Below, in pieces: positions 2,499 through 64,000 of a stretch of DNA of 64,000 bases. The notes under the pieces are model-generated. The model searched no databases, was not told the origin of the DNA, and was given only the letters and a program-made list of their open reading frames with translations. Both the position numbers and the translations under genes were made by a program. The stretch lies in the NCBI GenBank assembly GCA_025832235.1, contig GCA_025832235.1_3649.1; one strand, 5' to 3'. How positions within the stretch are numbered: the first letter of the stretch is position 1; each line of letters begins with the position of its first letter. Source of the stretch: a phage.

Positions 2499-3434
2499 AT
2501 GACAAATGAGGAACGTATGATGAAGTATTTTAATGCAGACGACCTAGTTGACAAAGGTCTTGTAACCAGCAGATATTACCCAGATCTTGGGTTAAAGATC
2601 TATAAATATGCCAGAAAAGTATTCTACAACAACTTATGGCATTTGTCTCCTCGATTACTGGAGTGCCGAGGCATTGTTGTCGGTAATGAAGGAAATGTTG
2701 TGGCATGGCCCTTCACAAAAGTGTTTAACTTGGGAGAAAACTCCACCAACCTGCCTGACAATAAGCTTGTGACGGCGGTAGAGAAAAAGAACGGATTCCT
2801 TGGTGTGGTGTCATCTCATAAAGGTGAACTATTGTTCTCAACAACCGGGTCTCTTGATTCCCCATATTGTAACCTTGCAAAGGAAACCATCCAGGAGCAA
2901 TGCGGTAATTTAGATCTTATCAAGAAGGTTATGGGCAATGAAAACATGACATTCATGTTTGAAATTTGTCACCCTTCAGATCCGCATATTGTTCAGGAAG
3001 ATCATGGCGCATATTTGATAGGTTGCAGATATAATGATTCTGGAATAATGCTACCAGAAGCCGCTTTAGATGGGATTGCCAAATACCTTGGTGCAAAACG
3101 TCCTCACACTGTGCGTGAAATTCCGTTCAGCTATGCAAAAGAGTTAGCTGCAGAAACAAGAGGTGAAGGATATATGATTCGTAAGCCTTACTACCCTTAT
3201 GATCTGCAGTTGAAGATCAAGTCTCCATACTATCTGGCACGAAAGGCCGTAATGAGGGGTAAAGCTTGGAAGATTTGGGATGATGATATCTTTAAACGTG
3301 TTGACGAAGAGTTTTACGGCATGGTAAACTTCATTCGTAACAACTACACAGAGGATGTATGGAACTGCCTCCTGGAGCAGGAACGCCGTGAGATACTTGA
3401 CTGCTATTTCCACAACGAGGACTATATGCAATGA
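2499..3434 (+). CDS. rnlA: RNA ligase 1 (T4 RnlA-like)
   Basis: ECRGI, KVFNLGEN and nucleotidyltransferase motif I EKKNG, motif IV EGYMIR, motif V KIK; resemblance to T4 Rnl1 from memory. Confidence 0.7.
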   Translation: MTNEERMMKYFNADDLVDKGLVTSRYYPDLGLKIYKYARKVFYNNLWHLSPRLLECRGIVVGNEGNVVAWPFTKVFNLGENSTNLPDNKLVTAVEKKNGFLGVVSSHKGELLFSTTGSLDSPYCNLAKETIQEQCGNLDLIKKVMGNENMTFMFEICHPSDPHIVQEDHGAYLIGCRYNDSGIMLPEAALDGIAKYLGAKRPHTVREIPFSYAKELAAETRGEGYMIRKPYYPYDLQLKIKSPYYLARKAVMRGKAWKIWDDDIFKRVDEEFYGMVNFIRNNYTEDVWNCLLEQERREILDCYFHNEDYMQ

Positions 3435-3781
3435 AGAAGTTGATTGTGTGGCTGGATGACTTGAGAGATCCGTCAAATTACGGGCTCCAAGACGCTGTTT
3501 GGCTAAAGAATTCCTCCGAGTTTATAGATTTTATTAACGATAATAGAAAGCTCTACAGACGCGTTTCTGAGTGGCACATGGACAACGACCTTGGAGAGTT
3601 GTTCGAAGGGTACGATTGCCTATCTATGTTGGAGGAAAAATTTGTATTTGGTAAGCCCCCTGTAGTTGACAACGTGAAGATTTTCGTGCATACTTCTAAC
3701 CCATCAGCGGCTCGTAAATTCATGCTTGCAGCTGACTCGTTTAAAAAGTTTGGAATAGAGATTAAACAAAACATCTACTGA
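3431..3781 (+). CDS. hypothetical protein, translationally coupled upstream of sirtuin
   Basis: ATGA overlap with rnlA stop; ends 9 nt before Sir2 start. Confidence 0.5.
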   Translation: MKKLIVWLDDLRDPSNYGLQDAVWLKNSSEFIDFINDNRKLYRRVSEWHMDNDLGELFEGYDCLSMLEEKFVFGKPPVVDNVKIFVHTSNPSAARKFMLAADSFKKFGIEIKQNIY

Positions 3782-4564: not shown

Positions 4565-5278
4565 ATGCTGAATACTAAATTAATTGACAACCTGGAAAAA
4601 CTGTCCCAACCTGAAAACTACCTTTGGTCTGCCAACTGGGTGGAAAACTGGAACCGTGTGGCAGCTAAAGTGAAAAAATCATACACACCGTTCGAATTAC
4701 AGCTTAGCTTCATTGAGGAAGAGTTCAATGAAGTTTTGGAAGAGCTGGAAAAAGGGGATGGTGGAGATCACCTGCTAAAAGAGGCCTGCGATCTTCACGT
4801 TGTCACAAGTTATGCCGCTTATCTTGTTAATGACAATCACGAAAAGTGGTCAAACCTGTTTGATAATCCACGAGGTCTTAAGTTCAAGATCGGTGAGTTC
4901 TATGATACACTGATCGCTGCGAAAAACACCTCTAAGCAAAGAGCATCCGCTTACCGCTTAGCAGAGTTGTCAACAGCTTTGCTGTTCCAGCTTCGCGGCG
5001 ATGTGTGCGGGATGATGCGTAAGGTTCTCAAATCGAATGACAGCAAGTTTGCACGGGTCAACCATCTACGGTATTCACACGGTGCCAGTGCAGATATGCC
5101 TGCTGAACAACTCATCGAGTTGGAGATTAAAGATCTTGAGCGACGCTTTGATGGTCGATATGAAGGTTTTGTTGCTAAGGAAGAATTCTACAACGGTAAT
5201 AAAGTTATCATATTCCTTGACAGTAAAGGTAAGATCATGAAGCCTTCGAGCTTCAAGGATGTAGCAGAGTATATTTAA
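4565..5278 (+). CDS. hypothetical protein, possible MazG-like NTP pyrophosphohydrolase N-domain
   Basis: EExxE...E..D pattern (IEEEFNEVLEELEKGD...LLKEACDL); followed by hairpin at about 5284-5300. Confidence 0.4.
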   Translation: MLNTKLIDNLEKLSQPENYLWSANWVENWNRVAAKVKKSYTPFELQLSFIEEEFNEVLEELEKGDGGDHLLKEACDLHVVTSYAAYLVNDNHEKWSNLFDNPRGLKFKIGEFYDTLIAAKNTSKQRASAYRLAELSTALLFQLRGDVCGMMRKVLKSNDSKFARVNHLRYSHGASADMPAEQLIELEIKDLERRFDGRYEGFVAKEEFYNGNKVIIFLDSKGKIMKPSSFKDVAEYI

Positions 5279-5341
5279 CAACATGGCCGGGATTACCCGG
5301 CTTTACTTGTTGTGGAAAGTATGCAAGTGAGGCAGATAGTT

Positions 5342-5650
5342 ATGTACAAGCACTCTAGAGATCTTGAAAACGATGCTGTGTTTGGGGATCAGATGAAAGA
5401 GTTGGTTAAACTTATAGGCAGGATAGAGGATAAGTTTGACACTAAGATCTACATCGACAGCAAAGTATTCAACCACAAAATATGGACAAATCTGTGTGTT
5501 GGACTACATGGAGATAAAGATGTGGTAAATTTAGTTGTAATTAAGTTCATAGTGTGGCAGAATAAAACTATAAATTATTACGATCCACACCTGCTTGTTT
5601 ACCCAATAAAAGATCTATTAGATAAGGAGGACTGCAATGCCGTTATTTAA
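5342..5650 (+). CDS. hypothetical protein
   Basis: ORF; start moved to ATG 5342 with GAGG RBS (ORF-track start 5312 lies inside a hairpin). Confidence 0.4.
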   Translation: MYKHSRDLENDAVFGDQMKELVKLIGRIEDKFDTKIYIDSKVFNHKIWTNLCVGLHGDKDVVNLVVIKFIVWQNKTINYYDPHLLVYPIKDLLDKEDCNAVI

Positions 5651-5906
5651 TCTTGCTAAACCTGTAGAAGCACACCAGTTTGACGGAAGCTCTTCATCAG
5701 TATCTGATCTGCAACGGTGGATTGATACAGGTGTGTTTACATCGTCACCTGTTCGGACCAGAGATCTTCGTCGCATGTGTGAGCTTGTAGAGCCGTTTGG
5801 TAACCTAGTCTTGTACCAGGGTGATTGGCTTGTTGATTTTATGGGGGACTGGTTGGTAATGAGTAAAGAAGAGATGTTTAAAATTTTTAAGGAAGAGGCC
5901 GAGTAA
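5637..5906 (+). CDS. hypothetical protein
   Basis: ORF in compact same-strand array. Confidence 0.4.
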   Translation: MPLFNLAKPVEAHQFDGSSSSVSDLQRWIDTGVFTSSPVRTRDLRRMCELVEPFGNLVLYQGDWLVDFMGDWLVMSKEEMFKIFKEEAE

Positions 5907-7189
5907 TGCATCAAATCAAAACAACACTGTACGCACTGAACAAAGATGGCAGCTACCAACAGTGGAAAGTATTCACGGATGGTGATAAGGTTATCGTAGA
6001 GTTTGGCAAGCTTGATGGTAAACTGCAATACAAAGAGACGATCTGCACACCTAAGAACGTGGGTCGCGCCAATGAAACTACAGCTGAGCAACAGGCCGAG
6101 CTGGAAGCGATCAGTAAGTGGGAAAAACAGGTCCGACTCGGGTACGTGGAGAGTATGGAAGATTGTGAGCAAGGTGTTGATCTTTTACCCATGTTGGTGC
6201 ATGACTACCTGAAGCGTGGCAAGGCACTTAAATTACCTTGCTGGATCTTGCGTAAGTTAGATGGCCTTCGTCTACTTGTTGTTTTCCAGAATGGTGAGCC
6301 TAAATTTATTTCCCGTGGTAATAAGTCCTACCCTATTCAAGGAAAGCTTCTGGAGCAACTTCGCTCTTTCCACCTAACCACCGGGATTAAACAGCTCGAC
6401 GGAGAGCTCTATATTCATGGTCTACCTCTGCAGAAAATAGTGTCTCTTGCTAAACGGTGGCGCACACAGGAAGAAATTCAGGCCGAGATCGATAAAGACT
6501 ACAAGGCAGATAAAAAACGCCGTCAGGCTGCGATTAAAGCAGGTTTAGCAACATACAAAAACTTCAACAAGGTGGACATTCCTGTTGATGTTGAGCCTGT
6601 TCGTGATGATTTGCGTTACGGAGGGTACTGCAGCTACGACTTAGAGTATCATATTTTCGATATTCCTAGCGATAAGGTGTGGTGGGATCCTGAAACAGAG
6701 TCTGGTCGCTGTAAGGATCTTATGGAGGCAAACGGTGCTATTACTTCTTTGATGCTTGATCATATTAAGGTTGTTGATGCAGAGCTTGCATATACGGTTG
6801 ATCGGTGCGAAGAGTCTGTTGGTATATTTATGTCTGAAGGATATGAAGGTACCATTATGCGTAACTTCTGTGGTAAATATGAGTATGGTCAGCGAACATC
6901 TGAAGCATTGAAATGGAAAAAGTTCAACGACGCAGAGGTGAAAGTTATTGACGTTGAGAAAGATAAGAATGATGAAGGTGTTCTTATCTGTGTTGACAAG
7001 GAAGGTGTTGTTGTTAAAATGAAGATGAAAGGCACGCACGAGGAGCGTAGCTATGACAGGATGCAGGAAATGATCGGAAAGTTCGTCACCTTCAAATATC
7101 AAGCGAGGACAGAAGACAACAACTACCAATTCCCTGTCGGTATCTGCGTCCGAAATGTTAACCCAGATACTTGGGAGGTTCTGGAATGA
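5906..7189 (+). CDS. ATP-dependent DNA ligase
   Basis: motif I KLDGLR, DGELY, motif IV EGTIMR, motif V LKWKK; AAGGAAGAGG RBS. Confidence 0.8.
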   Translation: MHQIKTTLYALNKDGSYQQWKVFTDGDKVIVEFGKLDGKLQYKETICTPKNVGRANETTAEQQAELEAISKWEKQVRLGYVESMEDCEQGVDLLPMLVHDYLKRGKALKLPCWILRKLDGLRLLVVFQNGEPKFISRGNKSYPIQGKLLEQLRSFHLTTGIKQLDGELYIHGLPLQKIVSLAKRWRTQEEIQAEIDKDYKADKKRRQAAIKAGLATYKNFNKVDIPVDVEPVRDDLRYGGYCSYDLEYHIFDIPSDKVWWDPETESGRCKDLMEANGAITSLMLDHIKVVDAELAYTVDRCEESVGIFMSEGYEGTIMRNFCGKYEYGQRTSEALKWKKFNDAEVKVIDVEKDKNDEGVLICVDKEGVVVKMKMKGTHEERSYDRMQEMIGKFVTFKYQARTEDNNYQFPVGICVRNVNPDTWEVLE

Positions 7190-7342
7190 TGTAGGGAGGT
7201 TCAGTAGATAACGGTAGCCAATTGAATAAGTGTTTTCAATTTGCACCTACATATACCCTGATGTATGCACTGTGCAACCTAGCCACACCACACAGTGGTG
7301 CTGATCGGGGCCTCGTTATGAGTAAACTGGAGAGTATGAAAA

Positions 7343-7840
7343 ATGAAACTTGATAAAAATGTTCAACGAAAAGCTTTCTTGGATCTTATTGGCTGGGCAG
7401 AGGGAACAACAACCCACCCTGCCACCAAATGTGGAGGATACGATGTTGTAGCATACGGGATGGACGGAAAACCTGAAATCTTTACAGATTTTTCCACGCA
7501 CCCTTTTGCAAACGGTCGCCCTGGTAAAGTGTTTAACTCAAAAGGGCAAAGAACTACAGCCTGCGGTAAATATCAATTTCTTGTCAAATACTGGGAACAC
7601 TACAAAAAACAGCTTAAGTTGCCGGATTTTGGACCAGATAGTCAGGATAAGTGGGCGATCCAATTGATCAGGGAACGTAAAGCACTTGAAGATATAGATA
7701 ACGGTCATATTAAATCTGCTATACGTAAGACCTCAAATATTTGGGCTTCGTTCCCATACAACAAGTACGACCAAAATCCAAAAACCATTGACAAGTTGCT
7801 TAAGAAATTTGTAGAGTTTGGAGGTGTTGTTCTGGATTAA
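7343..7840 (+). CDS. lambda R-type endolysin (lytic transglycosylase, GH104)
   Basis: near-colinear with lambda R as recalled: QRKAFLD...GW.EGT...GYDV...FTD.S.HP...TA.G.YQ...W..Y.KQL.L.DF.P.SQD..A.Q.I.ER.AL..ID.G.I..AI...SNIWAS.P. Confidence 0.85.
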   Translation: MKLDKNVQRKAFLDLIGWAEGTTTHPATKCGGYDVVAYGMDGKPEIFTDFSTHPFANGRPGKVFNSKGQRTTACGKYQFLVKYWEHYKKQLKLPDFGPDSQDKWAIQLIRERKALEDIDNGHIKSAIRKTSNIWASFPYNKYDQNPKTIDKLLKKFVEFGGVVLD

Positions 7841-7894
7841 TGATCAAAAGGTAGGCCACTCGCCTACCTTGCTACACCAGAGGTGTGTTGAGAT

Positions 7895-8656
7895 ATGACG
7901 ATACATTTCTTTTTTAATGATCACTACCCTTATTGGTACAAGGATGGTGATCTAATCTTTTGGAAACCTGGCTACAGTAGGAATGGAAATAGGGCGGGAC
8001 ACTACAACAAAAAGACTGGATATTTCCAAGTGTACAATAAGCTGACAAATGTTAAACGTGGCAGACATAGGGAAATTTTTGACATGTTTTACGGATGTGT
8101 CACAGATGCTTGGCATATTGATCATATTATCTCTAAGAAAAATTCTACTAACGGAGTGCCTGTAGACAAGATAGAAAACCTTCAAATGTTGAAGCCTTGG
8201 GATAACTACTGTAAGAGAGCCTTGGAAAATGTGCAAAGCAATAACACTTCTACAGTGACTGGTGTGGTATGGCTAAAAAGAGAGGGTAAGTGGAGGGCAA
8301 GTAGAAGGATAAATAGGGTAAATGTTAGGTTGGGAGATTTTGACACTTTCGAAGAGGCCAAGGCTAGGATTGAATGGTCAATAGCCAACCCGGAAGAGGC
8401 TTTAAAGATAGTTCCAAACCCGCACAAGAATAATATCCTGCCCGGTATTGATTGGTCTAAGAAAGATACCTGTTGGAGGGCACGAGATAATAAAGGAAGA
8501 AACTTAAGGTGCTTCAACGACAGGAAGTGGCTAAATCCATGGTGGGAGGCAGTTTGTGCAAGAAAGTCTTGGGAAGTAAACTGTCTCTACGGAGGGATGT
8601 CACTAACTGAATGGAAGTTATCCAGAGGCTATCCAAGACCTTGTGTTGAGGATTGA
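7895..8656 (+). CDS. HNH homing endonuclease with AP2-type DNA-binding domain
   Basis: HNH core WHIDHI...N...NLQML; AP2-like VTGVVWLKREGKWRASRRINRVNVRLGDFDTFEEA; free-standing between endolysin and next gene. Confidence 0.7.
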   Translation: MTIHFFFNDHYPYWYKDGDLIFWKPGYSRNGNRAGHYNKKTGYFQVYNKLTNVKRGRHREIFDMFYGCVTDAWHIDHIISKKNSTNGVPVDKIENLQMLKPWDNYCKRALENVQSNNTSTVTGVVWLKREGKWRASRRINRVNVRLGDFDTFEEAKARIEWSIANPEEALKIVPNPHKNNILPGIDWSKKDTCWRARDNKGRNLRCFNDRKWLNPWWEAVCARKSWEVNCLYGGMSLTEWKLSRGYPRPCVED

Positions 8657-41507: not shown

Positions 41508-41723
41508 ATGAAGATAGAAATATTTGGTGGAGCTGACAACACTCGTGGCCTGATTTACCTTGAATTCGATGAATCATACCTGCCAGAGGTGTTAAATATA
41601 GACTCTGTTGCTGAGGCTTTGGGAGTAAACCCTAAAGAACTCCACTCTTGTGCTGAGATCGATGGTTGGGAAGAGACCATGAACATTGATTTCAGTGAAG
41701 TAGAGGATGAACCGCTGGACTGA
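41508..41723 (+). CDS. small acidic protein (MKIEI class)
   Basis: AGAGGAG RBS; last plus-strand gene before noncoding hub. Confidence 0.45.
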   Translation: MKIEIFGGADNTRGLIYLEFDESYLPEVLNIDSVAEALGVNPKELHSCAEIDGWEETMNIDFSEVEDEPLD

Positions 41724-42423
41724 CACACAATATTAGCTGCCCGGCTAAAGTGCTGGAAGCACCTATAACACATCTTTCAACTAAATTTCCTACCACCACA
41801 ATCACTTACCTCCCATACATGACTGTTTGCTTGTTTAGTGAGCAGTCATGCCTTGACATTCTTGCCTATCCTGATAAAATTAAGTTCTTCTCTTTTCTTT
41901 TACCGAGTAATTCGGGTTTTCTGTTCTCTTCGGTTTGAAGGGGTATGGAGATACACCTGAGTGAACAGGGTGAACAACCGAACCATTGGCTATGGCATTA
42001 GCATGGCGAAGCGGACGGGTGACGAAAGAGGGGCCGGAGGACACCAGTCACTGCCATATGATATATGGGTGATAACCTGAAGAGTCTGAATAAGTGTTTA
42101 AGTACCAGTCAGAGGAAAAGGTGAATGGTAGCCGAAGGGGGAGGGGGGTTTCTTGTATCTTTAATTTGTATATTATGTATACACTTGTAAACCAATTTCA
42201 TCTGAATCTGTTTACCACACAAAGTGGATAGAGACAAATATTACCTATTAAACTTGAATTATTTATAGAAAATACCACAACACCACTTAAGTCTTTGATT
42301 TTACACACAAATCTTACAGATATTCAACCTCCATATTTAACATACCTGTAACATATTCCATACTCTACCTGTCTGATCAATCTACCCAACCACATCCTTC
42401 ATATTTTCCCTGTCTGTACCACC

Positions 42424-42635
42424 CCTGCCCCGCCGGGAGTCCCGTCATATCTGGCTTTCCAGCAAATATCACACCCACAAATATCATTGCCTGAAGAGGG
42501 TTTCATCCCATAATACATGCCTTACCTGAAGAGCGCTTCATACACCACGTAAATTTTTTAATTGACCTGCAATTTTCCCGTCATGACCCCCTGCCCCGCC
42601 GGAGAGGTTGGCTTTTCCCACACAGACCTGAAGAG
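42424..42635. repeat. imperfect ~110-bp direct repeat pair plus four CCTGAAGAG copies
   Basis: CCTGCCCCGCCGG at 42424 and 42588; CCTGAAGAG at 42076, 42490, 42525, 42627. Confidence 0.6.
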
Positions 42636-43213
42636 TCAGCCAGAAATATCTGAACAGGCCCAATTCTACCACGATTTTGACCTGACCTACAGGAGTGCTG
42701 CCAGGCGGACGAAATGGGAATACTTCTCATTCTTATAACAATTCTCAAATATCAAGGCAGTGAGGCAAATTAATAGGCTAGGCCGTTCACACAGTGGCAC
42801 AACATTTGCAATCTATTTTGTGTGGGGGAATGAGAATACATATCATTGTGAGAACCATTATCATTACGGGCAATTTAACATAATACCCATTATGCGCACC
42901 ACTGGCGATACATACAGGGATTGATAACATGAGTTACTGTTTACGCATATAACAATTATATTTATTACTATTTGTGTGGGATATAGTTAGCAGCCGATAG
43001 ATTAGATATTGACCTGCGGACTTCTGACCGTCTAGACGTCTAAACGCCCACACAGCAAGGGTTATACATACATCGCTGAATGTAAACAGGGCCGCAAAAA
43101 TGCTACCATACCAGTTTGTAAATTTTCAATGCAGCACTTGACAAAGAGGAGAAAAACTTGTCTGACACCTTATACACTTTCGATACAATAACGACTGTTA
43201 TTATTTCATGTTT

Positions 43214-43300
43214 CACTGTTCACGTATAGATTGTTCCCGCATAGACTGTTTACGCCTGGATAGTTTACACCTTGACAGTTTACGCATAGATGATAAGCCA
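43214..43300. repeat. iteron-like tandem series of 15-16 bp repeats
   Basis: TAGAtTGTTcCCGC / TAGAcTGTTTACGC / TAGTTTACAC / GACAGTTTACGC in tandem. Confidence 0.6.
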
Positions 43301-43544
43301 TGCCATTCGTTTGCATGAAAACAATTAGCAAGTTAACAATTAACAAGTTAATAATATATGACATAATATAAAAGCAGGGCAACTATTATTAGATCTATAG
43401 TTGCCTTGCTTATTATGTCATGATTAACTGAATATAAGGCAACTATGATCTGATTAATAGATTGCAGACAAACTATCACGGGGGTGATGGTTACTGCTTT
43501 TATATTATGTCGCGACTCCGTCGCGCCATGCCATTCGTTTGCAT
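43297..43544. repeat. 20-bp perfect direct repeat GCCATGCCATTCGTTTGCAT flanking a nested palindrome cluster
   Basis: copies at 43297-43316 and 43525-43544; between them 18-bp perfect inverted repeat GACATAATATAAAAGCAG (43360-43377 / 43494-43511) enclosing GGCAACTAT/ATAGTTGCC palindromes. Confidence 0.65.
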
Positions 43545-44156
43545 AGTTGCCTTATTGTTACAGGTAAAACAATTACATTGTTAACTATTTCTTATCTTTC
43601 TCTTAGTCATCTAATGATTCCAGTCAGTATAGTTATGTGCAGTAAACATTAGACGACTAAAGATTTCTCTGATTATAGTAACCTATCGTGACAATTTCGA
43701 ACTGTTTACGAAAAATGTTGACACCTGGGCAGGTTTATGTTATGCAGTTTGTACGAATAATTATTTTGTACAGGTATTGACTATTCCGTTATTCTGTGGT
43801 TGGAATAAATACTTTGCAGGCTATAGAATGGTGATCGTACGTGGATTCTGAGATCTGTCGGCTATAGTTACACCCGATTTTTCACGTAGGACACGCTTTT
43901 TGGTTTGTGTAAGTGTATGACTTATAAGGGTTTTTAATTGTTGACAGTATACTGAAGATGTGCATCAGGTTAAATTTTGTGCAATAGCTGCATTACGTGC
44001 AATTTTGGGAGAGAAAACGGGTAAAAATAGCACCGCTACCACACAATGAAAGGTTATGCAATAGCTATTTTACATGTATATTTGTACAGTGTGCGGGATT
44101 GATGGCTCGTCAATTATTCCACTTGTCAGGTAGGGCCGTTTATGGTAGGAAAAGAG

Positions 44157-44184
44157 CAAACAAAAAGAAAGGGGCCTAAGCCCC
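44157..44184 (-). terminator. rho-independent terminator ending the minus-strand block
   Basis: minus strand GGGGC-ttag-GCCCC then TTTCTTTTTGTTTG. Confidence 0.6.
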
Positions 44185-44198
44185 TTGATAATGTTGTA

Positions 44199-44462
44199 TT
44201 ATTTGTTGCTCATCCAGTTTTCCCAAGCTGCCTGATAATCTGCCTCACTGCGGCGGATCTCTTCTTGTTCTTCAAGCCGGATCTCTTCTTCCAGGTACCC
44301 AAGGATGTCGGATTTTTTGGTCTGGCGTAACATCCAATCATCTTTTTTACGAGTAAAGATCTTGTACGCTTTCTCGCAAACCTCTTTTTTACTACCTTTT
44401 TGTACTTCAAGAACTTTGTAGGCCATGTACTGAACTAGTTTGAGCTGATCAAGACGTTTCAT
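44199..44462 (-). CDS. hypothetical protein
   Basis: AGAGGT RBS; 5' UTR hairpin GGGCC-AAAA-GGCCC upstream. Confidence 0.5.
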   Translation of the reverse strand: MKRLDQLKLVQYMAYKVLEVQKGSKKEVCEKAYKIFTRKKDDWMLRQTKKSDILGYLEEEIRLEEQEEIRRSEADYQAAWENWMSNK

Positions 44463-63282: not shown

Positions 63283-63558
63283 CAATAGTTCAGGTAGGTC
63301 GTTAAGCTACCCCGCACCATTACGTGCATAGCCATACGTTTTCACGTAGGATCGGACCATCTCATATTCCTATGATAAGCAACCACAGGAATCCTCCCAT
63401 TTCGACCGCACTTGCTGGTCTACTTCCTTTCGGAATGGCCTCTGAGCGTTCGCTCTTTTGAGCGCTTCGTTGCGGATTACCTTGCCATAAGGTTTAGGCT
63501 TCCCGCAGTTAAAGAGGTTATTCGACATAGATTACTCTATGAAGCCACAATGTTATTT
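63283..63558 (-). ncRNA. group I self-splicing intron in DNA polymerase gene (no internal ORF)
   Basis: 5' exon ends CAU, intron ends G; elements ACUGCGGGAAGCC (P), GUAAUCCGCAACG (Q), GUAGACCAGC (R) and GAGAUGGUCCG (S); length restores frame. Confidence 0.7.
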
Positions 63559-64000
63559 ATGGTAATAAATAATACGACGAACACCTTCATCGTACCACCC
63601 ACGCTTCACCATCTGGCGGTGCATGAGTATTCCAACTAAGTCACACAGCGATGCACCACCATTTTGTTGGTATGCATTAAGTAAAGAGTGTTTAGATCTG
63701 GTCCAGATAGCATGACCATCAAAAGAGTAGATAAACTTCTTACCCGTTGCTTCCCAGAATTTCTCCAGATCTTCTTTACGCCCCTTAAGACCAGGGTTGG
63801 CATCCCAGAGTGCATCGATTACCCTTTGTCCCAACTCTGGAGAGATGTCCAGCATATCTGCAACTTTATCTTTTTGTGCCCCATACATAACCCCATACGT
63901 GATAGGTTTACCGTCGTTACGGGAAATCTCCTTGCCTGCTACAGAAGAGTAAGCTTTGGCGTTATTACAGTTACCGCACACTGCCACTTTACCATTCCTT
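63559..64000 (-). CDS. family A DNA polymerase, 5' exon (partial, continues beyond window end)
   Basis: motif B-like region ...AKAYSSV...YGVMYGAQ... and NAYQQNGGASLCDL; ends ...VRRIIYYH at the splice site. Confidence 0.7.

Follow-up and report, generated by a model that had tools for sequence, protein, structure and literature searches.

Our analysis of a 64,000-nt stretch of phage DNA (contig GCA_025832235.1_3649.1 of GenBank assembly GCA_025832235.1; hereafter the window, whose positions are used throughout) points to a gene-free, repeat-rich region at 41724-44198, hereafter the hub, as the chromosome-end or concatemer-junction region of the phage. We assign this reading a probability of about 0.7, a value that blends the location of the genome ends with the roles given to the elements flanking them. 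To judge from the sequences compared, a terminal repeat and both genome ends very probably lie in the hub, at 42704 and 43162; that the flanking repeats and a palindrome serve packaging or end processing has slightly less than an even chance. The source phage is a member of Vequintavirus (rV5-like myovirus of Escherichia coli), and its hub shares 86-95% identity with 122 Vequintavirus records. A first-pass annotation of the window had outlined a slightly narrower region (41930-44160) and had suggested, among other roles, a packaging or genome-end site; this suggestion was borne out, as the 459-bp direct terminal repeat of vequintaviruses maps inside the hub. The features bearing on the ends are the following, with cuts marked by a slash:

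42396-42703, plus strand: left-flank repeats, comprising a direct repeat of ~44 nt (42396-42439 and 42566-42606) and three of the four CCTGAAGAG copies of the hub
42692-42711, plus strand: left cut-site motif GGAGTGCTGCCA/GGCGGACG, placing the left genome end at 42704
42704-43162, no strand: direct terminal repeat, 459 bp, present as a single copy in the window; it would stand at both ends of the virion DNA
43137-43167, plus strand: right cut-site motif CTTGACAAAGAGGAGAAAAACTTGTC/TGACA, placing the right genome end at 43162
43163-43214, plus strand: TGACAY short-repeat array
43215-43289, plus strand: iterons, five units of 15 nt with the core ACTGTTYAC
43297-43544, no strand: module between 20-bp direct repeats (copies at 43297-43316 and 43525-43544)
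43360-43511, no strand: Y-shaped palindrome with an 18-bp perfect outer stem, a long imperfect hairpin and a short G+C-rich hairpin (43471-43492), followed by GCGACTCCGTCGCGCCA

Terminal repeat and genome ends

The record of phage EdH4 starts at the equivalent of 42704 and ends at that of 43162, with its first and last 459 nt identical, and terminal redundancies of 458 bp were given in one sentence for EdH4 and HdK5 (Korf et al., 2019). Seven other records open or close at one or the other of these points; among them, bov10K2 and bov22_2, in their revised form, begin at 42704, ECP2303 and YN3 stop at 43162, and EcoIv14a_Aya begins at this second position. The same sequence at both ends, and ends at fixed nucleotides, two marks of T7-type termini, were found in relatives, the former in relatives 90-95% identical to the source phage. 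Several further records break elsewhere inside the hub, as is expected where an assembler meets doubled coverage. In Shigella phage CM1 (MK962749.1; stretch 2519-3507) the terminal repeat and 64 nt of its right flank stand twice in tandem, and the junction, GGATAC/GGCGGACG, falls at the left end (42704), as expected if a contig starting at that end had been joined to its own tail; this duplication has the look of an artefact from joining a linear contig during assembly, and not of a biological feature.

The left cut can be written as GCTGCCA/GGCGGACG (or, for the comparison of borders, as GTGCTGCCA/GGCGGAC), and the right cut follows a purine-rich tract ending in TTGTC. Among 19 relatives the left motif hardly varies, a few of them having substitutions, and the DNA just outside it carries insertions of 25-57 nt. 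Conserved sequence fixes both of the cut positions.

Judging by the aligned borders, the cut-site motifs recur, as related forms, in two other genera of the subfamily Vequintavirinae. In KPP-1 (genus Mydovirus), a 514-bp repeat at 116316-116829 had been located from coverage and PhageTerm, and its authors call the packaging T7-type; this repeat sits in a 1.8-kb gene-free gap between convergent gene blocks, the gap adjoins a gene exactly as long as the 87-aa one that borders the hub on the right, and the repeat itself displays weak collinear similarity to the 459-bp repeat of the source phage. In A73 (Septuagintavirus), a homologue of the 87-aa protein lies beside a 2.1-kb hub, inside which the original gene numbering starts. 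The borders, which in KPP-1 both coincide with those of PhageTerm, read as follows:

KPP-1: left GGTGCTA/GACGGAC; right CTTGACAAGGAGAGAGAATTGTGT/TTAGCAA
A73: left CTGCTGCCA/GGCACGG; right GAAGAGAGAAGAGAGTTTTGTC/TAGCAAA

The left-flank motif also has counterparts on the same flank, namely ACCTGAAGTGTCAGCC in KPP-1 and an array of CCACAGAG or CCTGAAGAG in A73. Within the A73 stretch 5271-8400, read as its reverse complement, a left array of CCACAGAG extends over ~680-800 and a right array of CTTTGTGG over ~1700-2080; as CTTTGTGG is close to the reverse complement of CCACAGAG, the motif is oriented one way to the left of the terminal repeat and the other way to its right. The related TTTGTGTGG or CCACACAAA is found in the source window at 42215, 42817 and 42971.

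Flanking repeats and the Y-shaped palindrome

Every repeat listed in the first-pass annotation is present where it had been placed, and those that were scored exceed chance. To the left of the terminal repeat, the motif described as occurring four times, CCTGAAGAG, stands at 42076, 42490, 42525 and 42627, i.e., four copies within 550 bp, and the window holds eight against 0.61 expected. The other four copies (16188, 17055, 23945 and 41426, plus strand) lie in or beside genes, apparently as Pro-Glu-Glu codons, and these coding contexts indicate that the window-wide excess is partly a coding effect. A direct repeat announced at ~110 bp survived as a core of ~44 nt (42396-42439 vs 42566-42606; score 41 vs 16 ± 2 for shuffles), its full length not being recovered; CCTGAAGAG follows each copy of this core at a differing distance.

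On the right, the TGACAY array starts at the first base past the terminal repeat and comprises one to about six units among relatives, and the iterons begin 52 bp past the border. About five iterons of 15-16 bp had been noticed, and Tandem Repeats Finder indeed returns five 15-nt units at 43215-43289 (period 15); the 15-mer ACTGTTTACGCATAG, allowing up to 3 mismatches, has six matches in the window against 1.58 expected, all six inside the hub. The number of iterons (15-16 nt) per phage is 1 in CM1, 5 in the source phage and 10 in rV5, so that the cores are kept and the copy number is not. The core CTGTTTAC is also found to the left of the terminal repeat (42208), twice within it (42937 and, on the minus strand, 43082) and at 43702, five of its six copies in the window being located in the hub. 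A third array, AACAATTARCAAGTT (43320-43355, period 15), is made up of two copies in the source phage and of four in SYGMH1.

The 20-bp perfect direct repeat, GCCATGCCATTCGTTTGCAT, was confirmed at 43297 and 43525, as was the 18-bp perfect inverted repeat (43360-43377 and 43494-43511), which constitutes the outer stem of the Y-shaped palindrome. The palindromic elements said to be enclosed by it correspond to GGCAACTAT, present in alternating orientation at 43378 (+), 43397 (-), 43438 (+) and 43543 (-); the window holds five copies, four of them in the hub, against 0.46 expected, and GGCAACTAT/ATAGTTGCC pairs are borne by the long imperfect arm. The predicted fold is very stable, with -43.9 kcal/mol (z = -10.0) as DNA and z = -11.8 (plus strand) and -10.0 (minus strand) as RNA. 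The outer stem is invariant in 19 vequintaviruses, in three of which 33 extra nt are inserted at the long arm's tip. Moreover, modules in the same relative place were found in KPP-1 (21-bp perfect stem, z -8.9) and A73 (16-bp perfect stem, z -4.9). Their arms are homologous across the three genera (GACAYWATA...), with 3-6 differing positions plus indels, every one of them compensated, and the tail ...GTCGC...TCGCGCCA is common to the source phage, KPP-1 and A73. Since the changes in the arms are always compensated, the pairing itself is under selection, and the lack of any G-T or G-U pair in the arms favours a structure at the DNA level; the fold beats shuffles, with its compensatory changes, equally as DNA and on both strands. 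The segment between the 20-bp copies (43317-43524) is present in 118 records. Phage FV3 is a viable natural deletion that lacks the whole 228-bp unit (one 20-bp copy plus 208 bp); as it keeps one repeat copy with nothing between, the module was lost by recombination, and its presence in 118 records together with its absence from FV3 describes an element that is conserved yet dispensable for viability.

Integrating these findings, we propose that in replicating DNA one copy of the repeat would join successive genomes, and that in virions a copy would stand at each end: the terminase would recognise the junction and cut at both borders, and the repeat would be duplicated, as in T7-type packaging. 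The conserved border motifs would be the obvious cut signals, and the left CCTGAAGAG-type repeats, the TGACAY and ACTGTTYAC arrays and the palindrome could act as cis-acting terminase signals, the border arrays and the scattered CTGTTTAC cores being candidate terminase binding sites. The palindrome might provide a fold-back structure in repeat duplication, or a barrier to transcription or replication across the junction. The hub is non-coding yet as conserved as genes, and its arrays start at the first base outside the repeat.

Several points weigh against this proposal. For the source isolate, both ends are extrapolated from related phages. In two papers, PhageTerm classed vequintaviruses as 'circularly permuted' or 'headful'; we regard these verdicts as less reliable than an explicit terminal redundancy, and the revised records of one such set now start exactly at 42704, yet they count as contrary evidence. 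CM1 has a single iteron and FV3 no palindrome, from which it follows that neither element is strictly essential in its full form. Finally, the roles of the flanking repeats are only what we infer, and the RNA considered below is a candidate that draws on a promoter match and on conservation.

Among known systems, phages T7 and T3 come close in having exact, non-permuted ends, a repeat of a few hundred bp, one copy of it between genomes and cuts defined by sequence. The T7 arrays SRL and SRR reportedly lie directly beside its terminal repeat, and in this T7 and the source phage are alike; near the T7 junction there is said to be a palindrome for which a hairpin intermediate was proposed (Chung, Nardone and Hinkle, 1990). 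The differences from T7 are that the source phage is a 136-kb myovirus with no phage RNA polymerase, that its terminal repeat measures 459 bp instead of 160 bp and is flanked to the left and to the right by ~1 kb of non-coding DNA, beyond which the genes are directed towards the ends, and that the repeat motifs are unrelated in sequence. In form only, the palindrome resembles the T-shaped hairpin of the inverted terminal repeat of adeno-associated virus, a parvovirus, in that an outer stem with two hairpins, ~150 nt in all, lies near a genome end; the hub module, however, is ~200 bp inside a double-stranded genome, and neither a Rep-type nicking protein nor a sequence relation accompanies it.

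The promoter-led block and rival explanations

The left part of the hub contains the following:

41853-41880, plus strand: sigma-70 promoter TTGACA-16-TGaTAAAAT with an extended -10 element, the best match of the scan (11/12), pointing into the hub
41887-42150, plus strand: nearly invariant block of ~265 nt, a candidate non-coding RNA and the most conserved DNA of the locus
42150-42395, no strand: most AT-rich segment of the hub (29.7% G+C)

The promoter is conserved in relatives and is preceded by an 8-bp inverted repeat (41818-41825 and 41843-41850); the early promoters of rV5 are of the same style, and none is listed here (Table S4 of PMC3606486). Within the block, 21-25 of each 25 columns are unchanged among 28 sequences, with abrupt drops at ~41775 and 42150, and for a 326-nt query (41825-42149), 89 of 119 records showed an identity of 99% or more, as compared to 86-95% for the whole hub, this span being more conserved across the genus than the neighbouring genes. 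Its substitutions ignore codon positions. A 5' polypyrimidine tract is able to pair with a 3' polypurine tract, which is followed by UUUCUU. The predicted fold (-82.7 kcal/mol, z = -1.09) is not significant relative to shuffles, and a covariation analysis of 22 distinct sequences met too little variation, with no supported double change. One C-G to U-A double change, at 41983:42014 in the most divergent copy, was considered as a compensatory pair and rejected, as it exists in the single-sequence fold and the consensus fold of the alignment does not keep it. A search of 5,426 E. coli genomes gave no homologue of the block, and none was seen outside the genus; two 16-mer scans of IMG/VR gave ~33 matches each, all of which except two vequintavirus contigs proved on re-alignment to be due to chance, and a protein-based search for the locus in the same database returned only two contigs. 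A second invariant block lies at 42250-42299 (25/25 columns at 42250-42274 and 21/25 at 42275-42299, 28 sequences) beside a conserved lone DnaA-box-like TTTTACACA at 42299, and a weak leftward promoter match was seen at 42327-42298.

The block at 41887-42150 is thus a candidate RNA gene or, alternatively, a site acting at the DNA level, and, going by the sequence features just described, the strong, host-type promoter probably drives a conserved non-coding RNA of ~265 nt towards the right genome end. The first-pass annotation had allowed for a small RNA; such an RNA may be made from 41887-42150, which is not the part it had stressed. A reading in which the left part of the hub mainly makes such a structured RNA, with the palindrome perhaps transcribed as well, is tentative, although it is the alternative that we take most seriously: the near-consensus extended -10 promoter, the sharp-edged, non-coding and unusually conserved DNA directly downstream, the possible closing helix with its U-rich tail and the double change at 41983:42014 in the single-sequence fold argue for it, and the z-score of -1.09, the loss of that pair from the consensus fold, the lack of an Rfam match, the confinement to one genus and a conservation equally compatible with a DNA-level site argue against it. 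That the hub holds two elements new to the literature, a DNA palindrome acting as a fold-back primer or processing signal and a near-invariant RNA of ~265 nt made from an early-type promoter, is rather doubtful when both are taken together. The palindrome has also to be considered as a bidirectional terminator insulating the convergent units from each other. The rV5 authors did not find the bidirectional terminators that they expected between genes 163 and 164, the outer stem forms an A-tract/U-tract pair whose A/T-rich outer arms lie next to GCAG/CUGC, the inner hairpin (43471-43492) was flagged as terminator-like, and, folded as RNA, either strand is very stable; however, the blocks have their own end signals ~0.7-1.6 kb away, including the minus-block terminator at 44169-44186, a branched structure of 152 nt is atypical for an intrinsic terminator, the perfect Watson-Crick arms without G-U in three genera suggest pairing at the DNA level, and FV3 does without the palindrome. 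We consider an insulator unlikely.

A replication origin, which the first-pass annotation had named beside a packaging site, seems more unlikely still, even though it may coexist with genome ends. An initiator would bind the iterons, the AT-rich DNA would melt and the palindrome would serve priming; the tandem 15-nt iterons, the AT-rich segments (30-37% G+C), the conserved and very stable palindrome adjoining the iterons, and the failure of the rV5 authors to locate an origin are in line with this, and tandem short direct repeats and AT-rich DNA are shared with lambda ori and RSF1010 oriV, the latter also having a large inverted repeat. Unlike these iteron origins, the hub comes without an initiator gene, has a 15-16 bp period and an unstable copy number (1 to 10 among near-identical phages), and shows the opposite skew polarity, the cumulative GC skew reaching a maximum instead of a minimum at 41-42 kb, a signal confounded by the direction of transcription. 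Iterons bound by initiators are usually spaced two helical turns apart. DnaA boxes are not enriched (TTWTNCACA: 7 in the window vs 9 expected, one of them in the hub); the iterons themselves, whose units read TTATCCACG in some relatives, were tried as DnaA boxes and discarded for the same lack of enrichment. Each of the six nearest genes falls into a PHROG of unknown function and has no significant Pfam domain, no initiator-like gene or conserved hub open reading frame (ORF) being found; FV3 lacks the palindrome, and, since transcription of both gene blocks runs towards the hub, all of it would be opposed to replication forks that depart from there. Control of DNA entry, in which repeat-laden DNA would pause or anchor the entering chromosome as the injection stop signal of T5 does, is improbable to a far greater degree. 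The T5 region is likewise large, conserved and untranslated, straddles the inner border of the repeat at its junction with unique DNA, and is packed with direct and inverted repeats and palindromes; in contrast, T5 has a 10-kb repeat, pre-early genes between end and signal and eight paired DnaA boxes, none of which is found in the hub, where genes on both sides point towards the ends and leave no pre-early genes between end and repeats. To our knowledge, no two-step transfer is known for rV5-like phages. Hardly credible is the last alternative, that of functionless remnants of decayed genes with chance repeats, which had been named as a case that would overturn the first-pass annotation: CCTGAAGAG copies elsewhere are apparently Pro-Glu-Glu codons and several annotators called small ORFs in the hub, but the hub is as conserved as its neighbouring genes, in parts more so, its architecture persists across three genera, its repeats and folds far exceed shuffles, and its ORFs are not maintained in relatives. 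A chromosome-end region, as proposed above, is the reading that we retain.

Gene neighbourhood, earlier work and further observations

As the first-pass annotation had described, the hub is bounded by the ends of the plus and minus gene blocks, the plus-strand gene ending at 41723 and the minus-strand gene having its stop at 44199. The bordering features are:

41508-41723, plus strand: last gene of the plus block, 71 aa, unknown function, forming the left border of the hub (PHROG 12108, E 2e-52)
43545-44160, no strand: right AT-rich non-coding segment (36% G+C), with promoter-like sites on either strand as well as a 36-nt repeat (43972-44007 and 44049-84)
44169-44186, minus strand: intrinsic terminator of the minus gene block, identified by a scan and equivalent to rV5 terminator t164
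44199-44462, minus strand: last gene of the minus block, 87 aa, unknown function, forming the right border of the hub (PHROG 11701, E 2e-54)

The absence of real genes and of tRNA-like sequences from the hub, as claimed earlier, holds. ARAGORN found no tRNA in the hub, and Rfam gave no family at gathering score, with chance-level matches only at E<=10. The ten largest hub ORFs have no Pfam or PHROG match, most hub ORFs are broken in relatives, and they lack coding-type conservation, with synonymous to non-synonymous codon differences of ~1:3 to 1:5 vs 1:1 in the flanking real gene; the latter, the 71-aa gene, is intact in 18 of 19 relatives (31:31). Ten further public contigs have one short gene call in the hub among them all. 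Conservation in 43545-44160 is 0.86-0.98 per 25-nt window, a coding-like level. Chi sites, a possible means of end protection, were not found in the hub, nor was a paralogous copy of the hub found elsewhere in the 64-kb window.

The core identity of this locus is already published, in the form of a figure label and one sentence. In the rV5 genome, the stretch was drawn as a grey 'non-coding' box between genes 163 and 164, a change in skew was noted at the box, the origin was not definable, and neither promoter nor terminator was given inside it except t164 (Kropinski et al., 2013). This box and the redundancy of EdH4 and HdK5 (Korf et al., 2019) are the same locus and the same repeat; these two reports differ from the present one in that the repeat was not placed in the box, and the cut motifs, arrays, palindrome and promoter-led block were not described. 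In the literature searched, we found no description of where exactly the ends lie, of the cut motifs shared across genera, of the arrays with their variable copy number, of the co-varying Y-shaped palindrome or of the promoter-led invariant block. The majority of vequintavirus genomes on deposit begin at arbitrary points, and they are described as circularly permuted in several papers; ends at 42704 and 43162 would correct the annotation and the type of packaging assigned to these phages, which are in wide use against E. coli O157 and in therapy collections, and would tell genome engineers which 2.4 kb to leave intact. Furthermore, FV3 (no palindrome), CM1 (one iteron) and rV5 (ten) form a natural series for studying by what means the short terminal repeat of a large myovirus is recognised and duplicated, a process so far worked out mainly in T7.

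Regarding the neighbouring genes, several GenBank records label the 87-aa product as 'DNA translocase FtsK', and, given that it has no significant Pfam match and belongs to a PHROG without assigned function, this label looks like a propagated annotation error. In rV5, Murica, WalterGehring and others, an extra gene of 420 nt (ORF164, 139 aa), which in Murica carries the note 'Rel homology domain', lies between the hub and the 87-aa gene; it is missing in the source phage (about 44190-44199 in the window), FV3 and pangalan. Nineteen records named 'Campylobacter phage', with C. jejuni as host, are ordinary vequintaviruses 86-91% identical to the source coliphage; the four that were retrieved are flagged UNVERIFIED, and their host attribution is doubtful. 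Finally, a group I intron was detected at 63333-63568 on the minus strand (Rfam RF00028, 64.7 bits, E 4e-14); introns split the large terminase gene of rV5 (Kropinski et al., 2013), and the present one is probably one of them.

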